The notes beneath the pieces are model-generated. The model saw only the letters and a list, made by a program, of their open reading frames with translations, was not told the origin of the DNA and searched no databases. 43,019 nucleotides of DNA from a virus (lineage: Duplodnaviria; Caudoviricetes), in IMG/VR virus record IMGVR_UViG_3300049893_001226, positions 1 through 43,019 of that record. One strand, 5' to 3'. The position numbers and the translations under genes were made by a program. Positions 2,263 to 43,019 of this stretch are shown piece by piece; positions within the stretch are counted from its first letter, which is position 1, and the number at the start of each line of letters is the position of its first letter.

Positions 2263-2475
2263 TTAATTTGAAAATAGCTCTGGCCAAATAGTGTTTAAGC
2301 TCTCCCTTGACCTATTATCAGGTAGCGCTCTAGGTGGGTCAGCTTCCCAGTTTCGGTAGGTTGACATGCTAACCCCAAACAATCTACTCGCCTTCTCTTG
2401 GCTTAAAGGTCTGCCTAGTTGGTCGGTTTTACTTGCTCTTACTGATCTTAGTTTTTCACTGAAAGTTAGGCTCAT
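2263..2475 (-). CDS. Cro/CI-type (XRE) helix-turn-helix protein
   Basis: 70 aa, LSQEKASRLFGVSMSTYRNWE motif. Confidence 0.8.
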   Translation of the reverse strand: MSLTFSEKLRSVRASKTDQLGRPLSQEKASRLFGVSMSTYRNWEADPPRALPDNRSRESLNTIWPELFSN

Positions 2476-4201
2476 ACATTAACCTTTCTTCGCTTGCTTT
2501 GCGAAAGCTGTGCATATTTGTCCCGTAGGGGTCTGTAATCGTGCCATAGGACAGATATTTCTCATAGAGTTCTTTTGCCTTTTCGTACTTGTTTTGGAAG
2601 TAGTAATATTCTGCTAATAAAAAGGTAGCGTCTGGTTTGTTGTTGTCAAATAGATAATCGTCTACATCGTGTTTCCAAAACTCTACCCCAGCCCATTGAT
2701 AGTGGGCTAACGCTATTGAGTATTTAATATGGTCGGCCTCCATGCCATCGGCAAGTTCCAAAGCTTTTTCATAATAGTCTAGTGCTGGCTCAAAATTCTC
2801 TTGGCTGTGGTATTCCTTCCCAAGCTGGTAAAACTTATTGCCTGAATCTTCCTCCAACTCAAGTAATCTTATATTCCTATCGCTTTTCTGTTTGTTTGCC
2901 TTTGGGTCACTATATCCAGTGTGTTCAATTTCTACACCGTCGGCTAAAACATAGGTAAGCCCTAATTCATTGGCTGTTTTTATGTAGTTTTCATGTACTC
3001 GGTTTTCCCACTTCAACCCATCAACTCTAGGAAATAATCTAGGCTGTTCCGCTGTGAATGTAGTCCCGTGGCCATGGTCTACTATCTTAAAACCAAAGTG
3101 ACATTTTTTCTTTGCTGTTAGTGGCCCTGGCTTGTCTATGATTGCCCTAATTAGCTCTCCCATGCCCTCGGGTATCTTATCATCGTCGTCTACCCATAAA
3201 ACCCAGTCACCAGTACATTTAGATAGAGAAAAGTTTCTAGCTTCTGCAAAGGAATCATTCCAAGGGGAGTGGTGTATTTTTATTCCTGTAAAATTTAATT
3301 CTAAGCTTTGTTGCTGTGTTGTTACGATTACTATTTCATCTGCAAATTTTAAACTTCGGCATAAATCCATTAACTTTTCGCTAATATCCCTTACAATCAT
3401 GCTAACACTTAATTTCACTGGCTTAATCGGTTGGGTGTTAATCATATCAAAACCCCACAAATCCACGGCTTCGGGTGGGTTGCCGTCAAACATCTTCATT
3501 AACTTTTCGATGTAGATATTTTCAGTTTGCTTAATTAACCTCTCACTATCGGGATTTTGTTTAAAGCTCTCGTGTCCATAGTGGTAAACATAAACGCCCG
3601 TTGCTATTACCATTTTATAGCCCAATAGAGACAATTTTAGGGAGTAGTCTAGGTCATCACACCCCAAGAATAAATCATTATCAAAACCGCCCAATTCGGT
3701 AAATACCTTCTTTGGGGTCATTAAAAAGAAACCGATTAGCATTTGGCTTTCAAGGTATCGGCCACCCATTCCCCTTAGTGCCATCACTGCGTTTTTCTTA
3801 TAATTGTCATATTGTTGCATGTGATTGCCCGCATTTTGCAATCCTGCCACAAAATTGGATATAGGCCCCACGGCTCCGATTTTATCAGATACTTCTAATC
3901 CCTTGGTCATTTCCTCGCACCAAAATTCACTTACTATCGTGTCGGGGTTAACAAAGATCAGAATGTCCCCTTTGGCGTATGTTGCTCCATAGTTTGCCCC
4001 TCCTGAATATCCTAGGTTCTTTTCGGGAAAATAAACCGTACATCCATTTAGTTTGGTGTCCATCTCTCGGCTGTTATCAACTATGATAATCTCGTAAGTA
4101 GACTTAGGCGGGTGTTTTTGGATTGATTTAATACAAGCCTCCAACTTATCGAAAGCCTTGTAAGCAACTATGATTATTGAGTATTTCATACCTTTAAACA
4201 T
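2456..4201 (-). CDS. Glycosyltransferase: two GT2 domains plus TPR repeats
   Basis: YSIIIVAY..IIVDN..NLGYSGGANYG..FVNPDT..GGFD..DDLDYS; second domain LSVSMIVRD..WNDSFAEARN..WVDDDD..RVHE; TPR-like FYQLG/FLLAE. Confidence 0.9.
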   Translation of the reverse strand: MFKGMKYSIIIVAYKAFDKLEACIKSIQKHPPKSTYEIIIVDNSREMDTKLNGCTVYFPEKNLGYSGGANYGATYAKGDILIFVNPDTIVSEFWCEEMTKGLEVSDKIGAVGPISNFVAGLQNAGNHMQQYDNYKKNAVMALRGMGGRYLESQMLIGFFLMTPKKVFTELGGFDNDLFLGCDDLDYSLKLSLLGYKMVIATGVYVYHYGHESFKQNPDSERLIKQTENIYIEKLMKMFDGNPPEAVDLWGFDMINTQPIKPVKLSVSMIVRDISEKLMDLCRSLKFADEIVIVTTQQQSLELNFTGIKIHHSPWNDSFAEARNFSLSKCTGDWVLWVDDDDKIPEGMGELIRAIIDKPGPLTAKKKCHFGFKIVDHGHGTTFTAEQPRLFPRVDGLKWENRVHENYIKTANELGLTYVLADGVEIEHTGYSDPKANKQKSDRNIRLLELEEDSGNKFYQLGKEYHSQENFEPALDYYEKALELADGMEADHIKYSIALAHYQWAGVEFWKHDVDDYLFDNNKPDATFLLAEYYYFQNKYEKAKELYEKYLSYGTITDPYGTNMHSFRKASEERLMYEPNFQ

Positions 4202-4749
4202 CCTATTCCGTACTTGTCACTAATTTCATACAAAACCGTAAACTTGTCTTTTAGCATCTCCCAAAGCTCTAGGGGGCCTTGGCATTCTGCAATGTCGTGA
4301 AACCATACGATAGTTCCCTTTTTTAAATAGGGCTGTACAAGTGCCCAGTCTAAGCGTACACCGCAAGGGCTGTGATCTCCATCGATACCGATTAGGTCGA
4401 ATTTTACATTCAGGTCACTCAGAAAGTTTTCTGCTTCTTCGGAGTGGCTGTCTCCCAAAAACTCTTTGGTCTCTGGCATGTTTGGTTTGTTTAACTCTCT
4501 CCAAACATTTCTCCTGGGGTGTTTGTTTATGTCTATAGAATAGAACTTTTCAAACCTTATTTTATCGTAAATAAACCTCTCAGCACCACCGCTAGCAGTT
4601 CCTATGCTTAGATAGGTTTTTATTGGATACTCTTGGAGTGTTTTAACCAACCCAGCAAATTCCTTGGGGTCTTGTTGGATGTGGTAGCCTCCTACATTTG
4701 GGCCAAAAATGGCATCGTCAAGTCCAGCGTCGATGATTTCCTGGATCAT
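4186..4749 (-). CDS. Class I SAM-dependent methyltransferase (Methyltransf_24-like)
   Basis: YLSIGTASGG, GDSHS, FDLIGIDGDHS, LKKGTIVWFHDI. Confidence 0.85.
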   Translation of the reverse strand: MIQEIIDAGLDDAIFGPNVGGYHIQQDPKEFAGLVKTLQEYPIKTYLSIGTASGGAERFIYDKIRFEKFYSIDINKHPRRNVWRELNKPNMPETKEFLGDSHSEEAENFLSDLNVKFDLIGIDGDHSPCGVRLDWALVQPYLKKGTIVWFHDIAECQGPLELWEMLKDKFTVLYEISDKYGIGCLKV

Positions 4750-5318
4750 AATTTAATCATCCCGCACCATTTACCCTGGTACACCTTGCCGTATCGGTTC
4801 CTTAACTCGTTAAAAAGTTTTTTGTCCGCCTCATTGGTAAAATTAATCAGTACGCACCCCTTAGGATTGATCTTGCATATACCGTAATTAGGTTTGGCTC
4901 CCTCTCCAAAAGTCTCTTGGGGTTCTTTGCCTCCAAGTATAAACTTCCAAAGCTCGCTGGGTTCTAGGGCATAGCGTCGGGAATCAATTGAGATAATATC
5001 ATATGATCTTACTATCTCCCGTAGGAATTTCTTTTCCTTGGCCTTGTCGTTTTGTACATCCATTAGGTCGATGTGGTTAATGTTTGTTTTTTCTGATAGA
5101 AACCTATGCCCTCCAGTCTTTGCACTGTCCAAAGCTAGGTAACTCCTACAATCAAACTGCCTCACCAATGATATAATTGACGCAATTTCCTCTGGGGCAT
5201 ATTGGATATTATAGCCCTTGGTTCTGTCTTTATAGCCATTTGCTACTGTGATGTATTTCTTATAAAGCTCTGGCCGTTCGATTCCAGCCTCTATTGCTTG
5301 CTCGATTAAGCCCGCCAT
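4746..5318 (-). CDS. Degenerate methyltransferase-like paralog of 4186-4749
   Basis: GYNIQYAPEE vs GYHIQQDPKE, YLALDSAKTGG, YDIISIDS, INPKGCVLI; canonical DGDH motif lost. Confidence 0.55.
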   Translation of the reverse strand: MAGLIEQAIEAGIERPELYKKYITVANGYKDRTKGYNIQYAPEEIASIISLVRQFDCRSYLALDSAKTGGHRFLSEKTNINHIDLMDVQNDKAKEKKFLREIVRSYDIISIDSRRYALEPSELWKFILGGKEPQETFGEGAKPNYGICKINPKGCVLINFTNEADKKLFNELRNRYGKVYQGKWCGMIKL

Positions 5319-8170: not shown

Positions 8171-8183
8171 TTCATTGTCCTTT

Positions 8184-8228
8184 GTTAAGTGATAATCCTA
8201 ATCTACGATAAAAAGTCTTACACGTCAA
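8184..8228 (-). promoter_or_regulatory. Sigma70-type promoter with TTATCACTTAAC leader
   Basis: TTGACG-17-TAGATT followed by TTATCACTTAAC, the same 12-mer as at 13121-13132. Confidence 0.7.
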
Positions 8229-8365
8229 GCCCCAAACAAATCTTTTTTAATCTTTTTTTTCACAGTACTCCAAAACAGTGTACAACCCCTGCAAAAATGT
8301 TCATGCCTTTTGTTGTATCGGCTCATTGTTATTACTTCAGGGTGTCCGCATAGAGGGCAAATCAT
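8225..8365 (-). CDS. Small zinc-ribbon protein (46 aa, not in ORF track)
   Basis: MICPLCGHPEVITMSRYNKRHEHFCRGCTLFWST...; two CxxC; ATGA overlap with the helicase stop. Confidence 0.6.
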   Translation of the reverse strand: MICPLCGHPEVITMSRYNKRHEHFCRGCTLFWSTVKKKIKKDLFGA

Positions 8366-11385: not shown

Positions 11386-11502
11386 TCTGTCGCTTTCTCT
11401 CTGTCTTAGGTTAATTACTGGGCTTGCCTACCAATTAAGGTGCGACAGAGACGGCTTGACGGTCGAAAGCGGTTTGCAAACGGTTTGACCTGCCCAGTAA
11501 CC
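11386..11502 (-). ncRNA. Structured 5' leader / candidate C4-like antisense RNA
   Basis: Closing stem GGTTACTGGGC/GCCCAGTAATT; internal TCTCTGTCGC complementary to GACAGAGA and GCGACAGA just upstream of ATG 11382. Confidence 0.55.
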
Positions 11503-11505
11503 TTA

Positions 11506-11534
11506 AATCTATACTTTTTTTCTCGGAGCGTCAA
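11506..11534 (-). promoter_or_regulatory. Sigma70-type promoter of the replication operon
   Basis: TTGACG-17-TAGATT. Confidence 0.7.
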
Positions 11535-11646
11535 GATGTATTTTCATCACTTCCAAGTTATCTTTTTTGTCATAAATTATTACTGATAGGGTATGATCGG
11601 ATCATTTAGGGATACAATCGTATCATATTGGGTATATTAGCGTTTT

Positions 11647-11693
11647 GTTGTGGAGTTATACGCCAACATTCGTATATATCGTAGTTATAGGCA
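11647..11693 (+). mobile_element. attI-like recombination site at the head of the cassette array
   Basis: Core GTTATAGGCA (11684-11693) is the exact reverse complement of TGCCTATAAC (12302-12311); no long hairpin; extra GTT boxes upstream (GTTGTGG 11647, GTTATAC 11655). Confidence 0.6.
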
Positions 11694-11696
11694 ACC

Positions 11697-12362
11697 CTAA
11701 AAGAGCCTCTGCTGTGAAATTGCCTCATTAAACCTTTTATCCATTGTTTGACAATAATTTTCATCAATTTCAAATCCGACAAACTCAAAGCCGTTTCTGT
11801 AACAAGCTATACGACTTGAACCACTACCCAAATGAGTATCTAATATTTTTGCACCAGCTTCAAGTTCAGCAAACTTTAAGCAAAATTCATATAGTGATAC
11901 AGGCTTTTGGGTTGGGTGTATTTTATTTGTTTCAGCAGTTACAACGTGTTTGCTATAAATCTTTGCAGGTTTTTGAATACTCGACCAAGCAAATTCACAC
12001 ATTGCACTACTAAAATCGTAAGGCTGTTTTTTATCCCATATTAAAAAGCCTTGTGATTTCGGCAAATCAAAGTAGTTCCCACCCCAAATGATTTGATTTT
12101 TGCTTACCCTAAAAAGTTCTGTAAAATATTGCATTTCAGGTATGCTCATATCCCAATTTTTCTTTTCTTGCTTTTGCCTAAAAGGGTTGCTTGATAAGCC
12201 TATTCCGTATGGAGGGTCTACCAAAGCCAAATCAAAGTATTTATCAGGGTAGTGTTTCATACCCTCTACACAATCCATATTATAAACAACCGAAGAAGGG
12301 CTGCCTATAACATTGCATTGGCAAAATGGGGGCTGATGTAATTCTATTAAGCTATTGTTCAT
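11697..12362 (-). CDS. DNA methyltransferase (N4-C/N6-A, beta class), cassette 1 gene
   Basis: MDCVEGM, LALVDPPYG, IIWGGNYF, HPTQKP, ILDTHLGSGSS, GFEID. Confidence 0.92.
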   Translation of the reverse strand: MNNSLIELHQPPFCQCNVIGSPSSVVYNMDCVEGMKHYPDKYFDLALVDPPYGIGLSSNPFRQKQEKKNWDMSIPEMQYFTELFRVSKNQIIWGGNYFDLPKSQGFLIWDKKQPYDFSSAMCEFAWSSIQKPAKIYSKHVVTAETNKIHPTQKPVSLYEFCLKFAELEAGAKILDTHLGSGSSRIACYRNGFEFVGFEIDENYCQTMDKRFNEAISQQRLF

Positions 12363-12435
12363 AATTCAACTTTTGTTTTTTAATTTGGCTGTGGTGCTAA
12401 AATGCCCCCACTTCGCCAATGCTTCAACGTTGTGC
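12305..12435 (+). mobile_element. attC-like site 1 (131 bp)
   Basis: CTATAAC-attGCATTGGCaaaaTGGGGGC...GCCCCCActtcGCCAATGCttcaac-GTTGTGC. Confidence 0.8.
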
Positions 12436-12441
12436 GTAATG

Positions 12442-12918
12442 CTAAGAAACAGCATCGTGCATAGGAATTGCCAATCCATCTCTAATCATATCCAACGCAT
12501 CAAAATGATGTTCTAACAATCTTTTTGTAACAACAAATGGTGCTCTATTATGCCAATATGCCGTTCCATAACTTTTATATTCTTTCCAATATGCTTTAAA
12601 ATTAGTGTATCCAAAAAAGCTGTTATGAAAAAAATCTTCTTCGCCGTTAAAATCAATTTTTAATGTCATAGCATCATCAATTGGTCTTAATATTGGCTTA
12701 CAAAATTCAAAGAAAAAATCTGCGTTTTCAGGCGTTAGAGTTTTTTCTCTAATTTCATTTGGATTTGGTGCGTTTTCAACAACATCACCCAATCGATATT
12801 GCCCTTTAATATTGTAAGGCAAATAAAATGATAATCTTTCTTCTTTTGTCATTGTTTTGATTATTAAAGCACTAGGCACAACAGCGGGTTTACAAAATTC
12901 TGTATTTTCTTGACTCAT
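12442..12918 (-). CDS. Hypothetical phage protein, cassette 2 gene
   Basis: 158 aa, YLPY..KPILRP..LLEHHFD..LAI pattern recalled from Bacteroidota phage proteins; AAGGAG RBS lies within the attC loop. Confidence 0.75.
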   Translation of the reverse strand: MSQENTEFCKPAVVPSALIIKTMTKEERLSFYLPYNIKGQYRLGDVVENAPNPNEIREKTLTPENADFFFEFCKPILRPIDDAMTLKIDFNGEEDFFHNSFFGYTNFKAYWKEYKSYGTAYWHNRAPFVVTKRLLEHHFDALDMIRDGLAIPMHDAVS

Positions 12919-12956
12919 AAATCTCCTTTAACTTCGTAAACCTGCAACCGTTAATA
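12876..12956 (+). mobile_element. attC-like site 2 (81 bp)
   Basis: GCACAAC-aGCGGGTTTACaaaaTT...AActtcGTAAACCTGCaacc-GTTAATA. Confidence 0.78.
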
Positions 12957-13024
12957 AAACCATTCCCAGAGTCACGGGCAAGCCTTACGGACAGTACCCG
13001 CTCACTCATCGAGACAATGATAAT

Positions 13025-13053
13025 AAACTACTTTAAAAAGTTTTAAAAGTCAA
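13025..13053 (-). promoter_or_regulatory. Leftward promoter reading into the cassette array
   Basis: TTGACT-17-TAGTTT on the minus strand. Confidence 0.6.
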
Positions 13054-13087
13054 GTCTAAAAATAAAATAATTATTTTAAAAAAAGTC

Positions 13088-13132
13088 TTGACAAGTAAAA
13101 TTAAATAGAGTAAATTAGACTTATCACTTAAC
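13088..13132 (+). promoter_or_regulatory. Rightward early promoter with TTATCACTTAAC leader
   Basis: TTGACA-17-TAAATT, AT-rich UP-like element upstream. Confidence 0.75.
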
Positions 13133-13144
13133 GAAAGAGACAAA

Positions 13145-15749: not shown

Positions 15750-16463
15750 TTGGATATTCTGCTTAATGTTCTCAGCACTTGGTTACATGGTAGTTATAAA
15801 ATACATTGTGAGCGGTCTATGATGCACCCAATAATGAAAGCTTGGATTCTATCGGATTATGTATATTTTGATGAAGAAGTACATAACAAATTACCCATGG
15901 AATTGAAGTGGGTCGCAACGCTTCGCCACGGTTCTGATAGGTGCTTTATCTTTAAGGATAGCGAAAGTCTACACATAGTTTTTAGGGGGTCGGATGATTT
16001 TTGGGATTGGATATCAAATGCCGACGCTGGACTATGGGGCCAGGAACACGATTCAATTTCTGAAAGTTATGAGAGTTTTTCTGGTGACATATCTCATATC
16101 GCGAAACACCATTTAAATTTGGACTTTGGTATATATGGACACTCCCGAGGCGGTGCTATGGGGACATTTTGCGCTGAGCATTTATCTATAATCAAACCCT
16201 TATCTTGTATAACTTTTGGTGCGCCCGCAGTGTATCGAAAAGAAGGTCGAGATCATTATAATAGGTTACCCATAGACCATACAAATATCTTTGTCCGTGG
16301 GGACATTGTAGCTACATCCAAATTAATTCACCTGGCAGGGTTTAGGCATGTCGGGAAAGAGGTAGTTTTGCCAGCTTCTTTTTTAAACTTATTGGCTTAT
16401 TTTAGGGTAAAAGCACACCTTCGGGATACCCTGGATAAGGCAGTAAAAAAAAGATGGAAATAA
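15750..16463 (+). CDS. Class 3 lipase-family alpha/beta hydrolase
   Basis: IVFRGSD..DW..N, GHSRGGA nucleophile elbow, TFGAP, GDIV, FRHVG, C-terminal His; start codon uncertain. Confidence 0.85.
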   Translation: MDILLNVLSTWLHGSYKIHCERSMMHPIMKAWILSDYVYFDEEVHNKLPMELKWVATLRHGSDRCFIFKDSESLHIVFRGSDDFWDWISNADAGLWGQEHDSISESYESFSGDISHIAKHHLNLDFGIYGHSRGGAMGTFCAEHLSIIKPLSCITFGAPAVYRKEGRDHYNRLPIDHTNIFVRGDIVATSKLIHLAGFRHVGKEVVLPASFLNLLAYFRVKAHLRDTLDKAVKKRWK

Positions 16464-21568: not shown

Positions 21569-21680
21569 ATGATGATAAAAACTGGACAAATAATTTCACA
21601 AATACTTATATGTTTTTGTGAAAAATTTTGTTTAATTTTGTACGAAAACCTGGGCATTAAGTTGATAAATCGACCTTAAT

Positions 21681-25812: not shown

Positions 25813-26498
25813 GTTTTTAGTACTCCTGTTAAAAATCCAGTACCTGAATAAGTAAACGTCCAAGTGTTCGTACCGTCCGCAATGGTTGAAATTCTATCGG
25901 AACTATCATATGTTTTTGTGATTGTTTTTAGTGTTGCCCCTACCAATTTAACCAGCCCGCCAGTTTCCAGTCCGCTTGTATAGGTATGGGTTAACTCATC
26001 GTATTTTAAAGTATGTAGCCCCGCGTCGGATATATGAGTATCTACCGCCGTGTGTGTAGTTGACCCACCGTTTGCAAAGGTTGTTAGTTCGGTATTATCT
26101 GCGCTTGTCAAGTGGTAGTATTCCCCAGCCGTACCACCCTGTAAATCAGATCTGTTATTATGCAATACTGAGGCATCCGTAAAATGTATTGAGGCATCCG
26201 CCCTGTGGCTAATTGAGGAAGTTCTTTCGCTATCTAGTTGGGTGTGTGTTGCGGTTCCGCCGTTTAAAAATATGACCGCCTCGGCGCTGTCTGCACTGGT
26301 TAAATGGTAATACTCCCCAGTTGTTCCGCCCTGTATGCCTGTGAGGTCATTGTGGGCAAGGGAAGCATGGGCAATGTATGATTTAAGAAGAAGTCTGGTC
26401 TGTTTAATATCATTATCAAGGGAGTCAAACCACTCTAGCCAGTTCTTTGTAAAGTACTCTCTGTAAGTGTCGAAAGGTGGGATAGATGGCCGTCTCAT
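25809..26498 (-). CDS. Virion protein with internal repeats
   Basis: Two HN....IQGGT.GEYYHLTSAD repeats and H..DA..H motifs typical of fibre shafts. Confidence 0.65.
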   Translation of the reverse strand: MRRPSIPPFDTYREYFTKNWLEWFDSLDNDIKQTRLLLKSYIAHASLAHNDLTGIQGGTTGEYYHLTSADSAEAVIFLNGGTATHTQLDSERTSSISHRADASIHFTDASVLHNNRSDLQGGTAGEYYHLTSADNTELTTFANGGSTTHTAVDTHISDAGLHTLKYDELTHTYTSGLETGGLVKLVGATLKTITKTYDSSDRISTIADGTNTWTFTYSGTGFLTGVLKT

Positions 26499-27874
26499 TC
26501 CTCACCTTTTTGCTGTTGGTATAACATCCAAGGGCCTACTGGGGCAAGTGCTTTTAATATGTTAGGGTCTTGGGGGTCGAATGTGCCTTGGTTTCCTGTG
26601 GCGGATTTTATTTGGGTGGGGCTAAAAGCGATAACAGTATTACCAAGTAATGAAGGCCCTGAACCGTTATCTTTTATATTTTTAATAATTACGCCATCGT
26701 ATTTATTAGATTTTTTAGCCTCTTGCGCAATTTCGTTTACATTGTATTTTTTATTTTTAAAGTCAACATCAAACCAAGAGCCACTTTTCCCGTCAACAAT
26801 TAAAGGGTTTTTTAAAGAAATGAAAGATGGTATTATATTAGCTTTTTCTTTATACTCTCCATTAACTGTTTTAGTGTATCCACCCGCCACACTTGGTTTA
26901 CTGCTAAAAAAATGCAATCCTTCACCAGCCTCTTTCCATCTTTTATTTCCCGCTTTTTTATTATCAAACTCATCAAAGTCAATATCCGTACCATGATAAA
27001 CCACTAAAGGCTTACCCTCTTCGTCTACCACCTTGCTATCACCAAACCAGTTTTTGAAATTGGGGTTGTCAGTTATTGATGGTTTTGGCCTATAAATGTA
27101 CTCTTCTCCCATAGGTTCATTCATGTCGTCTAAAATTTCGCTTGCCTTAACTTTTTCCTCTATTATGTGTCCATTTCCTGCGTAATCTTTGGCAAGTTGT
27201 TTGTTAGTTGTAACAAAATCTCCCTTATTTATTTTGCTTTGGTTTTTTGGGGCGCCCCTGTAAATAGTAATGGTTTCATTTGGGTTAATTTTCATTGTTT
27301 TGTCAAGTGTTGTAATATTTTCTCCCAAATCGGCGATATACCTAAGTTCTGGATTATATTTTGTGAAAACAGTTCCTGTTGGGTTTACGCTAGTTACAAT
27401 ATTTTTACCAACCTTTTTAAGCCCTCCCAAGGCTAATCCACCTACTGCCATAGCTTTACCTACTGGGAATAAATTCTCTGCGTCTAGTAGGTTCTCTAGG
27501 CCAAATCCAACCATTCCGGCGGGGCTTCCTTTAAAAGGGCTTTCGCTTATTCCACTTCCACTGTATTGCATTGGTTTGGTTTGGTCTGGGCTATACTCTT
27601 TTTGGCTCAATCCCAAATTACCCGCTATTTCTTTTCCGCTCACATCGGGTACTTCTTCGGTTACTGATTTTGCTAGTCCCTTAAAAAACTCCCAAGGCTT
27701 ACCTGTCTTTATTGCTTCGTTTGTGGCGTATCTAATCGGTTTGGCTGTGTTGTCATCAAGGGTCTTTAATGCACCTGAAAAACTACTTGGAAACATAGGT
27801 TCAAAGTCTCTGGTTGCTCCCAAAGATCGTTTGGTTTCCTCTAGTTTCCTTTTCTTGTAGTCTTCCATGCTCAT
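26495..27874 (-). CDS. Probable ejected protein with two ADP-ribosyltransferase-like domains (polyvalent-protein type)
   Basis: ITIYRG..GDFVT...A..YA..EEYIY, then NFKNWFGDSKVVDEEGKPLVVYHGT..FFS..NPL..YDGVII..IAFSPTQIKS. Confidence 0.72.
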   Translation of the reverse strand: MSMEDYKKRKLEETKRSLGATRDFEPMFPSSFSGALKTLDDNTAKPIRYATNEAIKTGKPWEFFKGLAKSVTEEVPDVSGKEIAGNLGLSQKEYSPDQTKPMQYSGSGISESPFKGSPAGMVGFGLENLLDAENLFPVGKAMAVGGLALGGLKKVGKNIVTSVNPTGTVFTKYNPELRYIADLGENITTLDKTMKINPNETITIYRGAPKNQSKINKGDFVTTNKQLAKDYAGNGHIIEEKVKASEILDDMNEPMGEEYIYRPKPSITDNPNFKNWFGDSKVVDEEGKPLVVYHGTDIDFDEFDNKKAGNKRWKEAGEGLHFFSSKPSVAGGYTKTVNGEYKEKANIIPSFISLKNPLIVDGKSGSWFDVDFKNKKYNVNEIAQEAKKSNKYDGVIIKNIKDNGSGPSLLGNTVIAFSPTQIKSATGNQGTFDPQDPNILKALAPVGPWMLYQQQKGEE

Positions 27875-41949: not shown

Positions 41950-43019
41950 TATTTTCCGCCTTTTACGGTTGGGAGTGTTGTTTCAGAGGTAGGCATTATG
42001 CCATCTCCAAAGCCATAGGTTGGACAGGTAATGGGCCTGTCGTGGCCTGTGCCTCATTCGAGGCAATTTCTTGAGTCTTAGCCATTTGGTCGAGTTGCTT
42101 ACCCTGCATGTCCATCTCTTGGCCTTGTAGGGCCATCTGTTGCTCTTGTTGCTGGGCTTGCTGTTCTTGTGCCTTGGCTTGTTTAATAATCGTGCTATGC
42201 TCTTCCATCAAGTCTTTCATTTCTTGTGGGGCATCGGTTAGATGTAAAAGGTATTGGGTTAAGAAGGTTGCAAGTACTGGGTCTTGTTGTACTGAAGCGC
42301 CTGCGAGTAGTTCGGAAATCTGCTTTCTTACCTTATCCCGTACTGTGGGAGACTTCCAAGAATCCTCAAAAGTTATATCGTAATAGTCGCCATCTTCAAA
42401 GGTGTTTTCTTGTCTGTGGTTCCCAAACTCATCTTGGACTATTTTGTTAATCTCAATCCATTGTGGGCTGTTTTTGTCTTTTTGCTCTAAAACTCTGATT
42501 ACTTCGTTTGCAGTCCAATATTTCTGCCAGTAAGCCTTCCAAAGCTTTGCCCTTGTGATAAGAAAATTCATGTAATTGGTAATGAAAACTTGGCTTTGAA
42601 CTGAGCTTTGTTGTATTCTCTGTTCGTTTAAAACACCTGAAGTTGCACCCTCAGAAAGTCCCTGCATTGAGGGGGGGGTGCTGGAAGTTTCTTGTCTGAA
42701 AGAATTTGCAAAGTTTATTAAAGTGTCTGCATCAATCGAGCTTCGACCTTGTTCAATTAGTTCAACGCCACTACCTGCGGGAGCACCTTTTCGCTTCTTA
42801 AAGCTACGGCCACCGTCGGCATGGTTATTTATTACATCGTCTATCTCTGTTTCGTCAAAATGATCTCTACTTACAACATGGCTCTGGCCTGCGCTTGTCT
42901 TGGCTTGGTGTAGCTTGTTGACAAGTAGTGAATTAGTTAAGCGTAAACTGTCAATTTGGTGCTCTACATGCCCGCTTGGTTCGCCGTTTAAGTCCTCATC
43001 GACCAATTCAACCAAAGGA
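41782..43019. repeat. Terminal redundancy copy 2
   Basis: Imperfect direct repeat of 1-1238. Confidence 0.95.
41996..43019 (-). CDS. Portal protein C-terminal half (partial, variant allele)
   Basis: Same protein as the 215-2212 C-terminus with 5 amino-acid differences. Confidence 0.9.
   Translation of the reverse strand, partial: PLVELVDEDLNGEPSGHVEHQIDSLRLTNSLLVNKLHQAKTSAGQSHVVSRDHFDETEIDDVINNHADGGRSFKKRKGAPAGSGVELIEQGRSSIDADTLINFANSFRQETSSTPPSMQGLSEGATSGVLNEQRIQQSSVQSQVFITNYMNFLITRAKLWKAYWQKYWTANEVIRVLEQKDKNSPQWIEINKIVQDEFGNHRQENTFEDGDYYDITFEDSWKSPTVRDKVRKQISELLAGASVQQDPVLATFLTQYLLHLTDAPQEMKDLMEEHSTIIKQAKAQEQQAQQQEQQMALQGQEMDMQGKQLDQMAKTQEIASNEAQATTGPLPVQPMALEMA

Follow-up and report, generated by a model that had tools for sequence, protein, structure and literature searches.

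Genomic setting of the array

The window, by which we mean the whole stretch of 43,019 nt analysed here (virus record IMGVR_UViG_3300049893_001226, Caudoviricetes), is rated 100% complete and by Pfam and PHROG annotation encodes a P22-like portal, a terminase, a primase-helicase, an ERF protein and an amidase. At the junction of its leftward and rightward gene blocks lie two minus-strand genes, an orphan N6/N4 DNA methyltransferase of 221 aa (PF01555; 11697..12362) and gene 2, whose full ORF of 158 aa spans 12442-12918. The first codons of both ORFs fall inside attC-like hairpins, which we call H2 and H3, and an attI-like docking site lies at the 3′ side of the genes. No tyrosine recombinase was detected in this phage, with no PF00589 match in the whole record and none by Pfam or PHROG, and the array is without the integrase gene found at a complete integron. 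Since a search for close relatives of the phage returned none, no empty docking site was seen; relatives of the left flank of the docking site were also looked for and not found.

Several features elsewhere in the genome were recorded. Positions 41996-43019 repeat the portal C-terminus of 215-1238, a terminal overlap of ~1 kb. A 52-base repeat (8178-8229 and 13087-13138, 73%) comprises two candidate promoters with a common downstream TTATCACTTAAC box and is perhaps an operator. Next to the docking site is a two-copy imperfect direct repeat (11584-11625), and the HNH and replication genes are preceded by a long folded leader (11408-11503; fold z −2.16 on the plus strand); the origin is possibly here. 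The A+T-rich inverted repeat of 53 bases at 21580-21632, between convergent gene blocks, is more plausibly a terminator than a site for cassettes. Genes for a TPR-containing glycosyltransferase and a methyltransferase-24 lie between portal and terminase (2456-5318), a class 3 lipase is encoded at 15750-16463, and an ART-PolyVal ADP-ribosyltransferase domain occurs among the late genes (26495-27874).

Two attC-like hairpins

H2 (12303..12435) has both cores (AAC 12309, GTT 12431), spacers of 3 and 6 bases and a 19-bp stem with zero bulged bases, while the shorter H3 (12876..12956; AAC 12880, GTT 12952) has a 16-bp stem and a loop that holds AAGGAG (12928-12923) and an in-frame ATG. These are the sole AAC..GTT unequal-spacer hairpins in the 43,019 bases according to a custom detector, which is distinct from IntegronFinder and HattCI. 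The H2 score was matched 0 times in 40 shuffled 7-kb regions, and H2 folds better on the bottom (gene) strand (z −2.76) than on the top (−1.45). H3 is weak by itself, with 0.075 matches per shuffled 7 kb and fold z values (0.01 bottom, −1.29 top) no better than those of shuffles; we accepted it because its cores pair and because the identity between the window and locus L081 starts and stops at the H3 and H2 cores. The ends of the cassette bodies pair at 13/14 bases for the methyltransferase and 12/14 for gene 2. The array has the AAC/GTT cores, hairpins, complementary cassette ends and better-folding bottom strand of attC sites, H3 being weak by energy alone, and it is without extrahelical bases on the L″ arm, as the 19- and 16-pair stems align bulge-free (arm labels L″, R′ and R″ follow the available text of PMC5027507).

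The initial annotation of this DNA was accurate in the coordinates of both hairpins, of the ORFs, of the ATGs at 12362 and 12918 and of the AAGGAG. The two ATGs are base 70 of 123 in H2 and base 35 of 73 in H3, both between the stems on the bottom strand. It had also noted that each stop codon (11697 and 12442) begins 13 bases away from the preceding core, counted from its G (11684 and 12429), which we find to be a feature of the class (25/60 cassettes).

Orientation and borders of the cassettes

Both window genes lie on the bottom strand of their hairpins. Core pairing across a gene is symmetric, so that pairing leaves the owner hairpin undecidable, and three other tests were used. In the aadA7 attC the bottom strand has the long spacer first (supplement portion of Qi et al. 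2023, PMC9892861), and among 69 phage cassettes from 121 loci, a set that includes window cassette 2 and one duplicated contig, 60 carry their ORF on the long-spacer-first strand, 2 on the other strand and 7 have no clear ORF. The textbook arrangement, a gene on the top strand that ends before its attC, is replaced by a bottom-strand gene in 60 of the 62 ORF-bearing cassettes. When 162 phage hairpins were compared, hairpin and downstream sequence were alike with a different upstream sequence in 15 pairs, and hairpin and upstream sequence were alike with a different downstream sequence in 0. Other pairs were alike downstream only (19), upstream only (6), in the hairpin only (44) or in all three (10); in some of the 19 downstream-only, or ‘head-swap’, cases the two hairpins have diverged within one family and no clear swap is seen. 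Spacer asymmetry, the 60/69 cassettes and the 15 versus 0 co-inherited pairs bear out the reversed orientation proposed in the initial annotation, on comparative evidence. In a Bacteroidota comparison the flanking genes are on the opposite strand (8 hairpins, 4 replicons), a set from which a few low-scoring matches were left out and in which one hairpin overlaps a long ORF call.

Cassette 1 (11685..12429), made up of the methyltransferase body and H2, recurs in other phages, being 97.8% identical over 762 bases in L001 and 89.8% identical in L002, and having both ends in L027. Its neighbours differ in all three loci and its borders fall at AAC triplets. Contigs of runs X2, X4, X8, X9 and X19 break at 11682-11684, that of X9 also at 12431, and the cassette 1 borders are identical in contigs of runs X2 and X9. 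These comparisons indicate that the cassette travels as one piece, bordered at the AAC triplet. Cassette 2 (12430..12950) combines a body in a common cassette frame (see below) with the unrelated H3, and its match in L081 extends between the two cores only.

Other arrangements were seen among the compared loci. Whole genes lie inside the arms of one hairpin in L012 (2322-2985), L003 (2915-3650) and L130 (5780-5972), with an ATG soon after the left arm and a stop directly before the right arm, possibly another route of ORF capture. A Persicobacter array (L141/L144, CP012852.1) has repeated insertions of an IS91-like gene pair, located just ahead of attC-like hairpins.

Candidate docking site and recombinase

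The attI-like docking site (11669..11686, plus strand) consists of TTCG and 11 bases, followed by G|TT at 11684/11685. Copies of the cassette in relatives lose identity at 11682-11684, i.e., at this motif. The CGTATATA-N5-GTT spacing of the left flank recurs directly beside the integrase of the cultured phage Leef_1, with looser versions in L001 and L002. By these comparisons the attI-like end is well placed at 11684, where it may serve for docking. A hairpin at the left site (11669-11686) was considered and dropped (fold z −0.59 and −0.04). The 7.5-kb contig of this phage in run X1, possibly the run of origin, ends exactly at the docking GTT, 11686 (49% of the run read), a weak hint of alternative alleles there.

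In L027 the methyltransferase cassette is followed, after ~50 bases, by a gene for a 276-aa tyrosine recombinase in the same direction. An integrase gene co-oriented with the cassette genes stands ~50 bases after the last core in L027/L122, G003, L128, L121 and the cultured Leef_1, and in G003 a run of 9 hairpins scoring at least 14 ends at the recombinase gene; in L124, L126 and L127 there is a core 5′ of the recombinase gene and no detected hairpin. The L027 recombinase scores 167.5 against TIGR02249 (cut-off 265) and 199.5 against NF040815 (cut-off 220), and ~40 residues of IntI4 have no counterpart in it (query 172-194 versus IntI4 176-240). Since both cut-offs are missed and these ~40 residues are absent, the recombinase of the relatives is judged to be XerA-like and not an IntI with the IntI-specific insertion. 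The position of the integrase in relatives and the docking motif agree with an earlier suggestion for this locus, that the attI-like end lies at the 3′ side of the genes, where new cassettes would be distal to the candidate promoter at 13053.

Candidate promoter and leader peptide

The sequence TTGACT-17-TAGTTT at 13053-13025 (minus strand) is a plausible candidate promoter for the array; it is unlisted by a consensus scanner and its −10 element matches the consensus at 3/6 positions. The pattern TTGAC-N18-TAnWnT has 5 matches, 4 of them ahead of operons, against a shuffle mean of 1.11 with 0/100 shuffles reaching 5, in a test that is partly circular as the pattern was drawn from the same sites. 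The genes point to the attI-like end, so a promoter there could not drive the cassettes, and the array departs from the classical placement of Pc at the attI end in having its candidate promoter beyond the last hairpin. A separate candidate promoter lies outside the array at 11506..11534 (minus strand) and would serve the HNH and replication genes.

It had been proposed that the leader peptide encoded by the hairpin arm, ending in (N/A)V(I/V)xS, could tag this cassette class across phage proteomes. This use of the peptide has to be given up, as the motif fits 1/21 leaders and three reading frames are used. The coding frame of hairpin-start cassettes is the GTT frame in 4/23, frame 2 in 16/23 and frame 1 in 3/23. 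Among the methyltransferase leaders the motif fits 3/15, all of one lineage, and in many hairpins the same arm reads QPxFCQCN, in a frame that closes after few codons. The leader motif arises as a by-product when the DNA cores are translated in one frame out of three.

Probable translation start of the methyltransferase

H2 contains codons 1-17 of the methyltransferase, and its GTT core is read as Val18. In a structure model (pLDDT 86), residues 24-27, which precede Met29, form a confidently predicted strand, solved enzymes align with the protein from residues 19-26, and there is no in-frame ATG, GTG or TTG between the core and Met29 in the window. We scored 64 distinct N-termini from 80 methyltransferase loci, with 3 skipped. 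All 15 hairpin-linked enzymes have an in-frame ATG inside the hairpin, and 9 of them have no ATG from the hairpin to a conserved Asp (4 have no ATG, GTG or TTG there). Among the 49 without a detected hairpin, an ATG stands 7 or more codons ahead of the conserved Asp in 46; of the remainder, one has a Met only beside this Asp and two have none. The Met at the MDC position is missing in 49/64 N-termini, L029, whose sole Met is at that position, being a counterexample. More generally, in cassettes without a start of their own the hairpin ATG is in the coding frame in 15/19 cases and in other frames in 3/38.

A start at MDCVE (~12278) was rejected on the N-termini of relatives, the alignment of solved enzymes and the model, because a core strand would be lost. 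The methyltransferase thus likely starts at ATG 12362 in the hairpin loop, as first annotated, with homology and modelling as the basis. The accompanying idea of a disordered, dispensable N-terminal extension survives in part: relatives without it are consistent with dispensability, whereas residues 11-20 (pLDDT 79, with a short strand) argue against disorder. The gene keeps an A-rich start without a Shine-Dalgarno site, and its expression in the host of this phage is putative.

Two further observations concern this enzyme family. The protein ends in QQRLF (11697-11714), and many of L001-L080 have similar Q-L-x-L-F tails, with or without a cassette. A cassette in L027 (721-1416) has window-like ends, head and methyltransferase termini around a different central (likely target-recognition) region, which we read as specificity swapping inside the cassette.

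Gene 2 and a shared cassette frame

Gene 2 matches only PHROG 10841, of unknown function, with no Pfam or NCBIfam match, unnamed matches in the atlas, a model of pLDDT 55 and no fold match at E 0.001. In 11/12 homologs (gene-caller starts) the protein starts at MTKEE, the very outcome that the initial annotation had named as contrary to its proposal, and a native start of gene 2 in the loop is abandoned in favour of a 136-aa form (12442..12852). Nor is an in-loop start the rule for the class: in 41/60 cassettes an ATG of the cassette's own follows the hairpin within 70 bases, and the in-loop start is a minority state among cassettes. The 30 A-rich bases ahead of the native start (12853..12882), which would be translated, as 10 codons, only from the upstream ATG, are by comparison the 5′ untranslated leader of a common frame and natively non-coding.

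Using the first 22 leader bases as a pattern, we found this frame at 18 viral loci, which gives 19 copies with the window. Independently of the pattern, a distance of 30 bases separates core and ATG in 18/19 copies (window included), and a TAG followed directly by an identical 13-base end is present in 16/19. The 19 copies encode 16 unrelated protein families (BLASTP, E 0.001), and in L021/L164 the leader holds an in-frame stop. In a profile of 13 copies, one per family, from which three copies without the adjacent stop and three family duplicates were dropped, agreement is 13/13 at the ATG and 7 just after it, and at the 3′ end it rises across the final 8 bases ahead of the stop. Two smaller frame groups occur among 123 cassettes. 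These comparisons indicate that unrelated ORFs occupy one frame and are swapped near start and stop. We note that the near-identical A-rich leader makes divergence beyond recognition unlikely, allowing that short proteins may hide remote homology.

The usual hairpin of the frame is of the type found in L081, to which 10/14 other detected frame hairpins are at least 0.78 similar. L081 carries the gene 2 body under this hairpin, which is unrelated to H3 and holds no in-frame ATG, and the hairpin after gene 2 there is not H2. The identity of H3 to the usual hairpin is 0.15, and relatives of H3 were looked for and not found. The AAGGAG and ATG 12918 of H3 are in frame with MTKEE. Shine-Dalgarno motifs precede 20/45 window ORFs (automatic calls) versus 3/111 in ten donor-type loci, and 0/60 in the frame-sharing loci; Bacteroidia ribosomes ignore Shine-Dalgarno sites and prefer upstream adenines, according to portions of PMC7797042. 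The sole named one of 72 capsid relatives comes from a Fibrobacterota assembly (68% identical). From this one binned capsid record and the Shine-Dalgarno statistics we infer a host outside Bacteroidia. H3 was presumably acquired by a head swap through exchange at the second core, an event described as rare for classical attC in portions of PMC5027507. The in-frame ATG of H3 could be due to chance, at ~1 in 3 for the frame, and an in-frame hairpin ATG also occurs in 2/18 frame-sharing loci, without a Shine-Dalgarno site.

Discussion

Based on these results, we consider it quite probable that a phage integron-like system accounts for the locus, an array of two cassettes and no integrase gene in which the hairpin travels at the 5′ end of its gene, with an XerA-like recombinase from outside likely inserting cassettes at 11684 and the methyltransferase likely starting in the loop. 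Starting from the orientation, borders and hairpin-gene co-inheritance described above, the integrase absence here and the integrase position in relatives, we propose the following steps. Hairpin and gene would move together when the folded bottom strand is exchanged at AA|C, and a rarer exchange at the other core (G|TT, gene strand) would swap hairpin heads between bodies and could be the source of H3 on gene 2. The ATG of H3, with its Shine-Dalgarno site, would be an added start in a Shine-Dalgarno-reading host, the native start of gene 2 remaining MTKEE. Transcription from near 13020 would leave newly inserted cassettes promoter-distal, and the orphan methyltransferase would shield the phage from host restriction.

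Classical logic could instead be read on the gene strand, such that each hairpin belongs to the upstream gene and merely lends a start codon to the next cassette. The symmetric core pairing across each gene is compatible with this, as are the gene 2 body under a different 5′ hairpin in L081 and the 19 pairs with the same body start and different hairpins. Yet hairpins were never co-inherited with upstream sequence (0 pairs, versus 15 with downstream), the hairpin after gene 2 in L081 is not H2, and spacer asymmetry and integrase position fit the reversed reading, so that we regard a classical owner as very unlikely. The hairpins might also act mainly as mRNA structures for translation control, with the common borders arising by homologous recombination between repeats; start codons in loops would suit such a role, and G-T wobbles favour the coding strand (294 versus 92). 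However, the strand bias recurs (14 versus 3) in bacterial arrays, in which the strand concerned does not code, the AAC triplet marks the borders although the flanks have otherwise no relation, and a dedicated recombinase gene abuts arrays, which together make this account highly improbable.

A different concern is that the array is inert baggage from a Bacteroidota phage, received as one block by homologous or illegitimate recombination, with hairpins that neither recombine nor start translation in the present host. The genome has no tyrosine recombinase, the A-rich starts of both cassettes are without a Shine-Dalgarno site in a phage that uses such sites, and a family-type site of phage P12002L was not recombined by IntI1 (text portions of PMC9892861). 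Against this stand two intact ORFs, a left border exactly in the attI-like motif, a combination of neighbours that is in no relative found and, as a weak hint from a run read by about half, the X1 contig end. We therefore hold inert baggage to be unlikely, if less so than the two accounts above, and keep to an integron-like array with 5′ hairpins.

Phage attC clusters are already published. The phage CALINs of Qi et al. 2023 (PMC9892861) are, like the array here, integrase-less attC-like sites in phages with cargo rich in orphan DNA methyltransferases, and the site of Polaribacter phage P12002L has the same 6/3 spacers as the window family, according to the text portions of that paper; P12002L_attC1 was there the one site of six not recombined by IntI1. 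The same portions describe no bottom-strand genes, in-site starts, XerA-like family integrase or reusable frames. Our array resembles an integron cassette array and, by the custom detector, would match what is described for phage CALINs, but differs from integron cassettes in the integrase type, the extrahelical bases and the gene orientation. In PMC7468147, methyltransferases and ‘integron gene cassette’ matches are listed among variable phage genes, with no sites described in its available portions. A search of the literature, mostly without subscription papers, returned no description of the reversed, translated layout or of frame reuse.

With classical integrons (IntI, attI, attC and Pc; strand selectivity in portions of PMC5027507) the system has in common the AAC/GTT cores, the folded bottom strand, the long-spacer-first asymmetry, the cassette closed by complementary cores and the docking site beside a recombinase gene. 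Unlike these, H2 and H3 have no extrahelical bases, the associated recombinase is without ~40 IntI4 residues, and the head swaps suggest that second-core exchange is not negligible. In ORF-11 and ORF-18 of attI1 (portions of PMC8876359) a recombination site likewise supplies translation signals to a cassette without them, but there the signal lies in attI and acts by translational coupling, whereas here it lies in the mobile hairpin and acts by in-frame fusion. Bacteroidota arrays with a recombinase annotated as xerA (‘site-specific tyrosine recombinase/integron integrase’) have the same hairpin type (59-125 bases, same asymmetry), a similar docking motif and a related recombinase (36-38% identity), and differ in that the array follows the integrase gene with flanking genes on the top strand, the textbook way (4 replicons). 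Insertion of cassettes off the platform at attG sites similarly yields small integrase-less clusters (portions of bioRxiv 10.1101/2022.09.11.507474); attG needs little beyond GWT, whereas the docking site here is like the longer motif beside family integrases.

What this locus chiefly adds is the reusable frame, together with a setting that likely spans phyla. We speculate, with clearly less than even confidence, that these phages load unrelated ORFs into a frame of hairpin, leader and stop-bearing 3′ end, the loaded part beginning directly behind the ATG and finishing a few bases short of the stop, and re-head them at the second core, which here would have put a Shine-Dalgarno start on a Bacteroidota-type gene for a host of another phylum. 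If true, cassette manufacture would be visible in this system, which would also act as a translation adapter across phyla. Little is known of how cassettes form de novo (PMC5371416), and one frame with 16 unrelated protein families and junctions defined to a few bases offers a testable handle on cassette genesis. If our view of the host holds, near-identical (97.8%) methyltransferase cassettes pass from phage to phage across host phyla and offer a path for anti-restriction genes.

The reversed layout would also provide natural recombination hairpins that encode protein. Since a large survey pipeline drops ORFs that overlap attC by >50 bases (PMC7370490), cassettes of the reversed type are probably undercounted. 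The same layout is present in the cultured Flavobacterium phage hemulen6-1 and Polaribacter phages P12002S and Leef_1, so that experiments are possible now.
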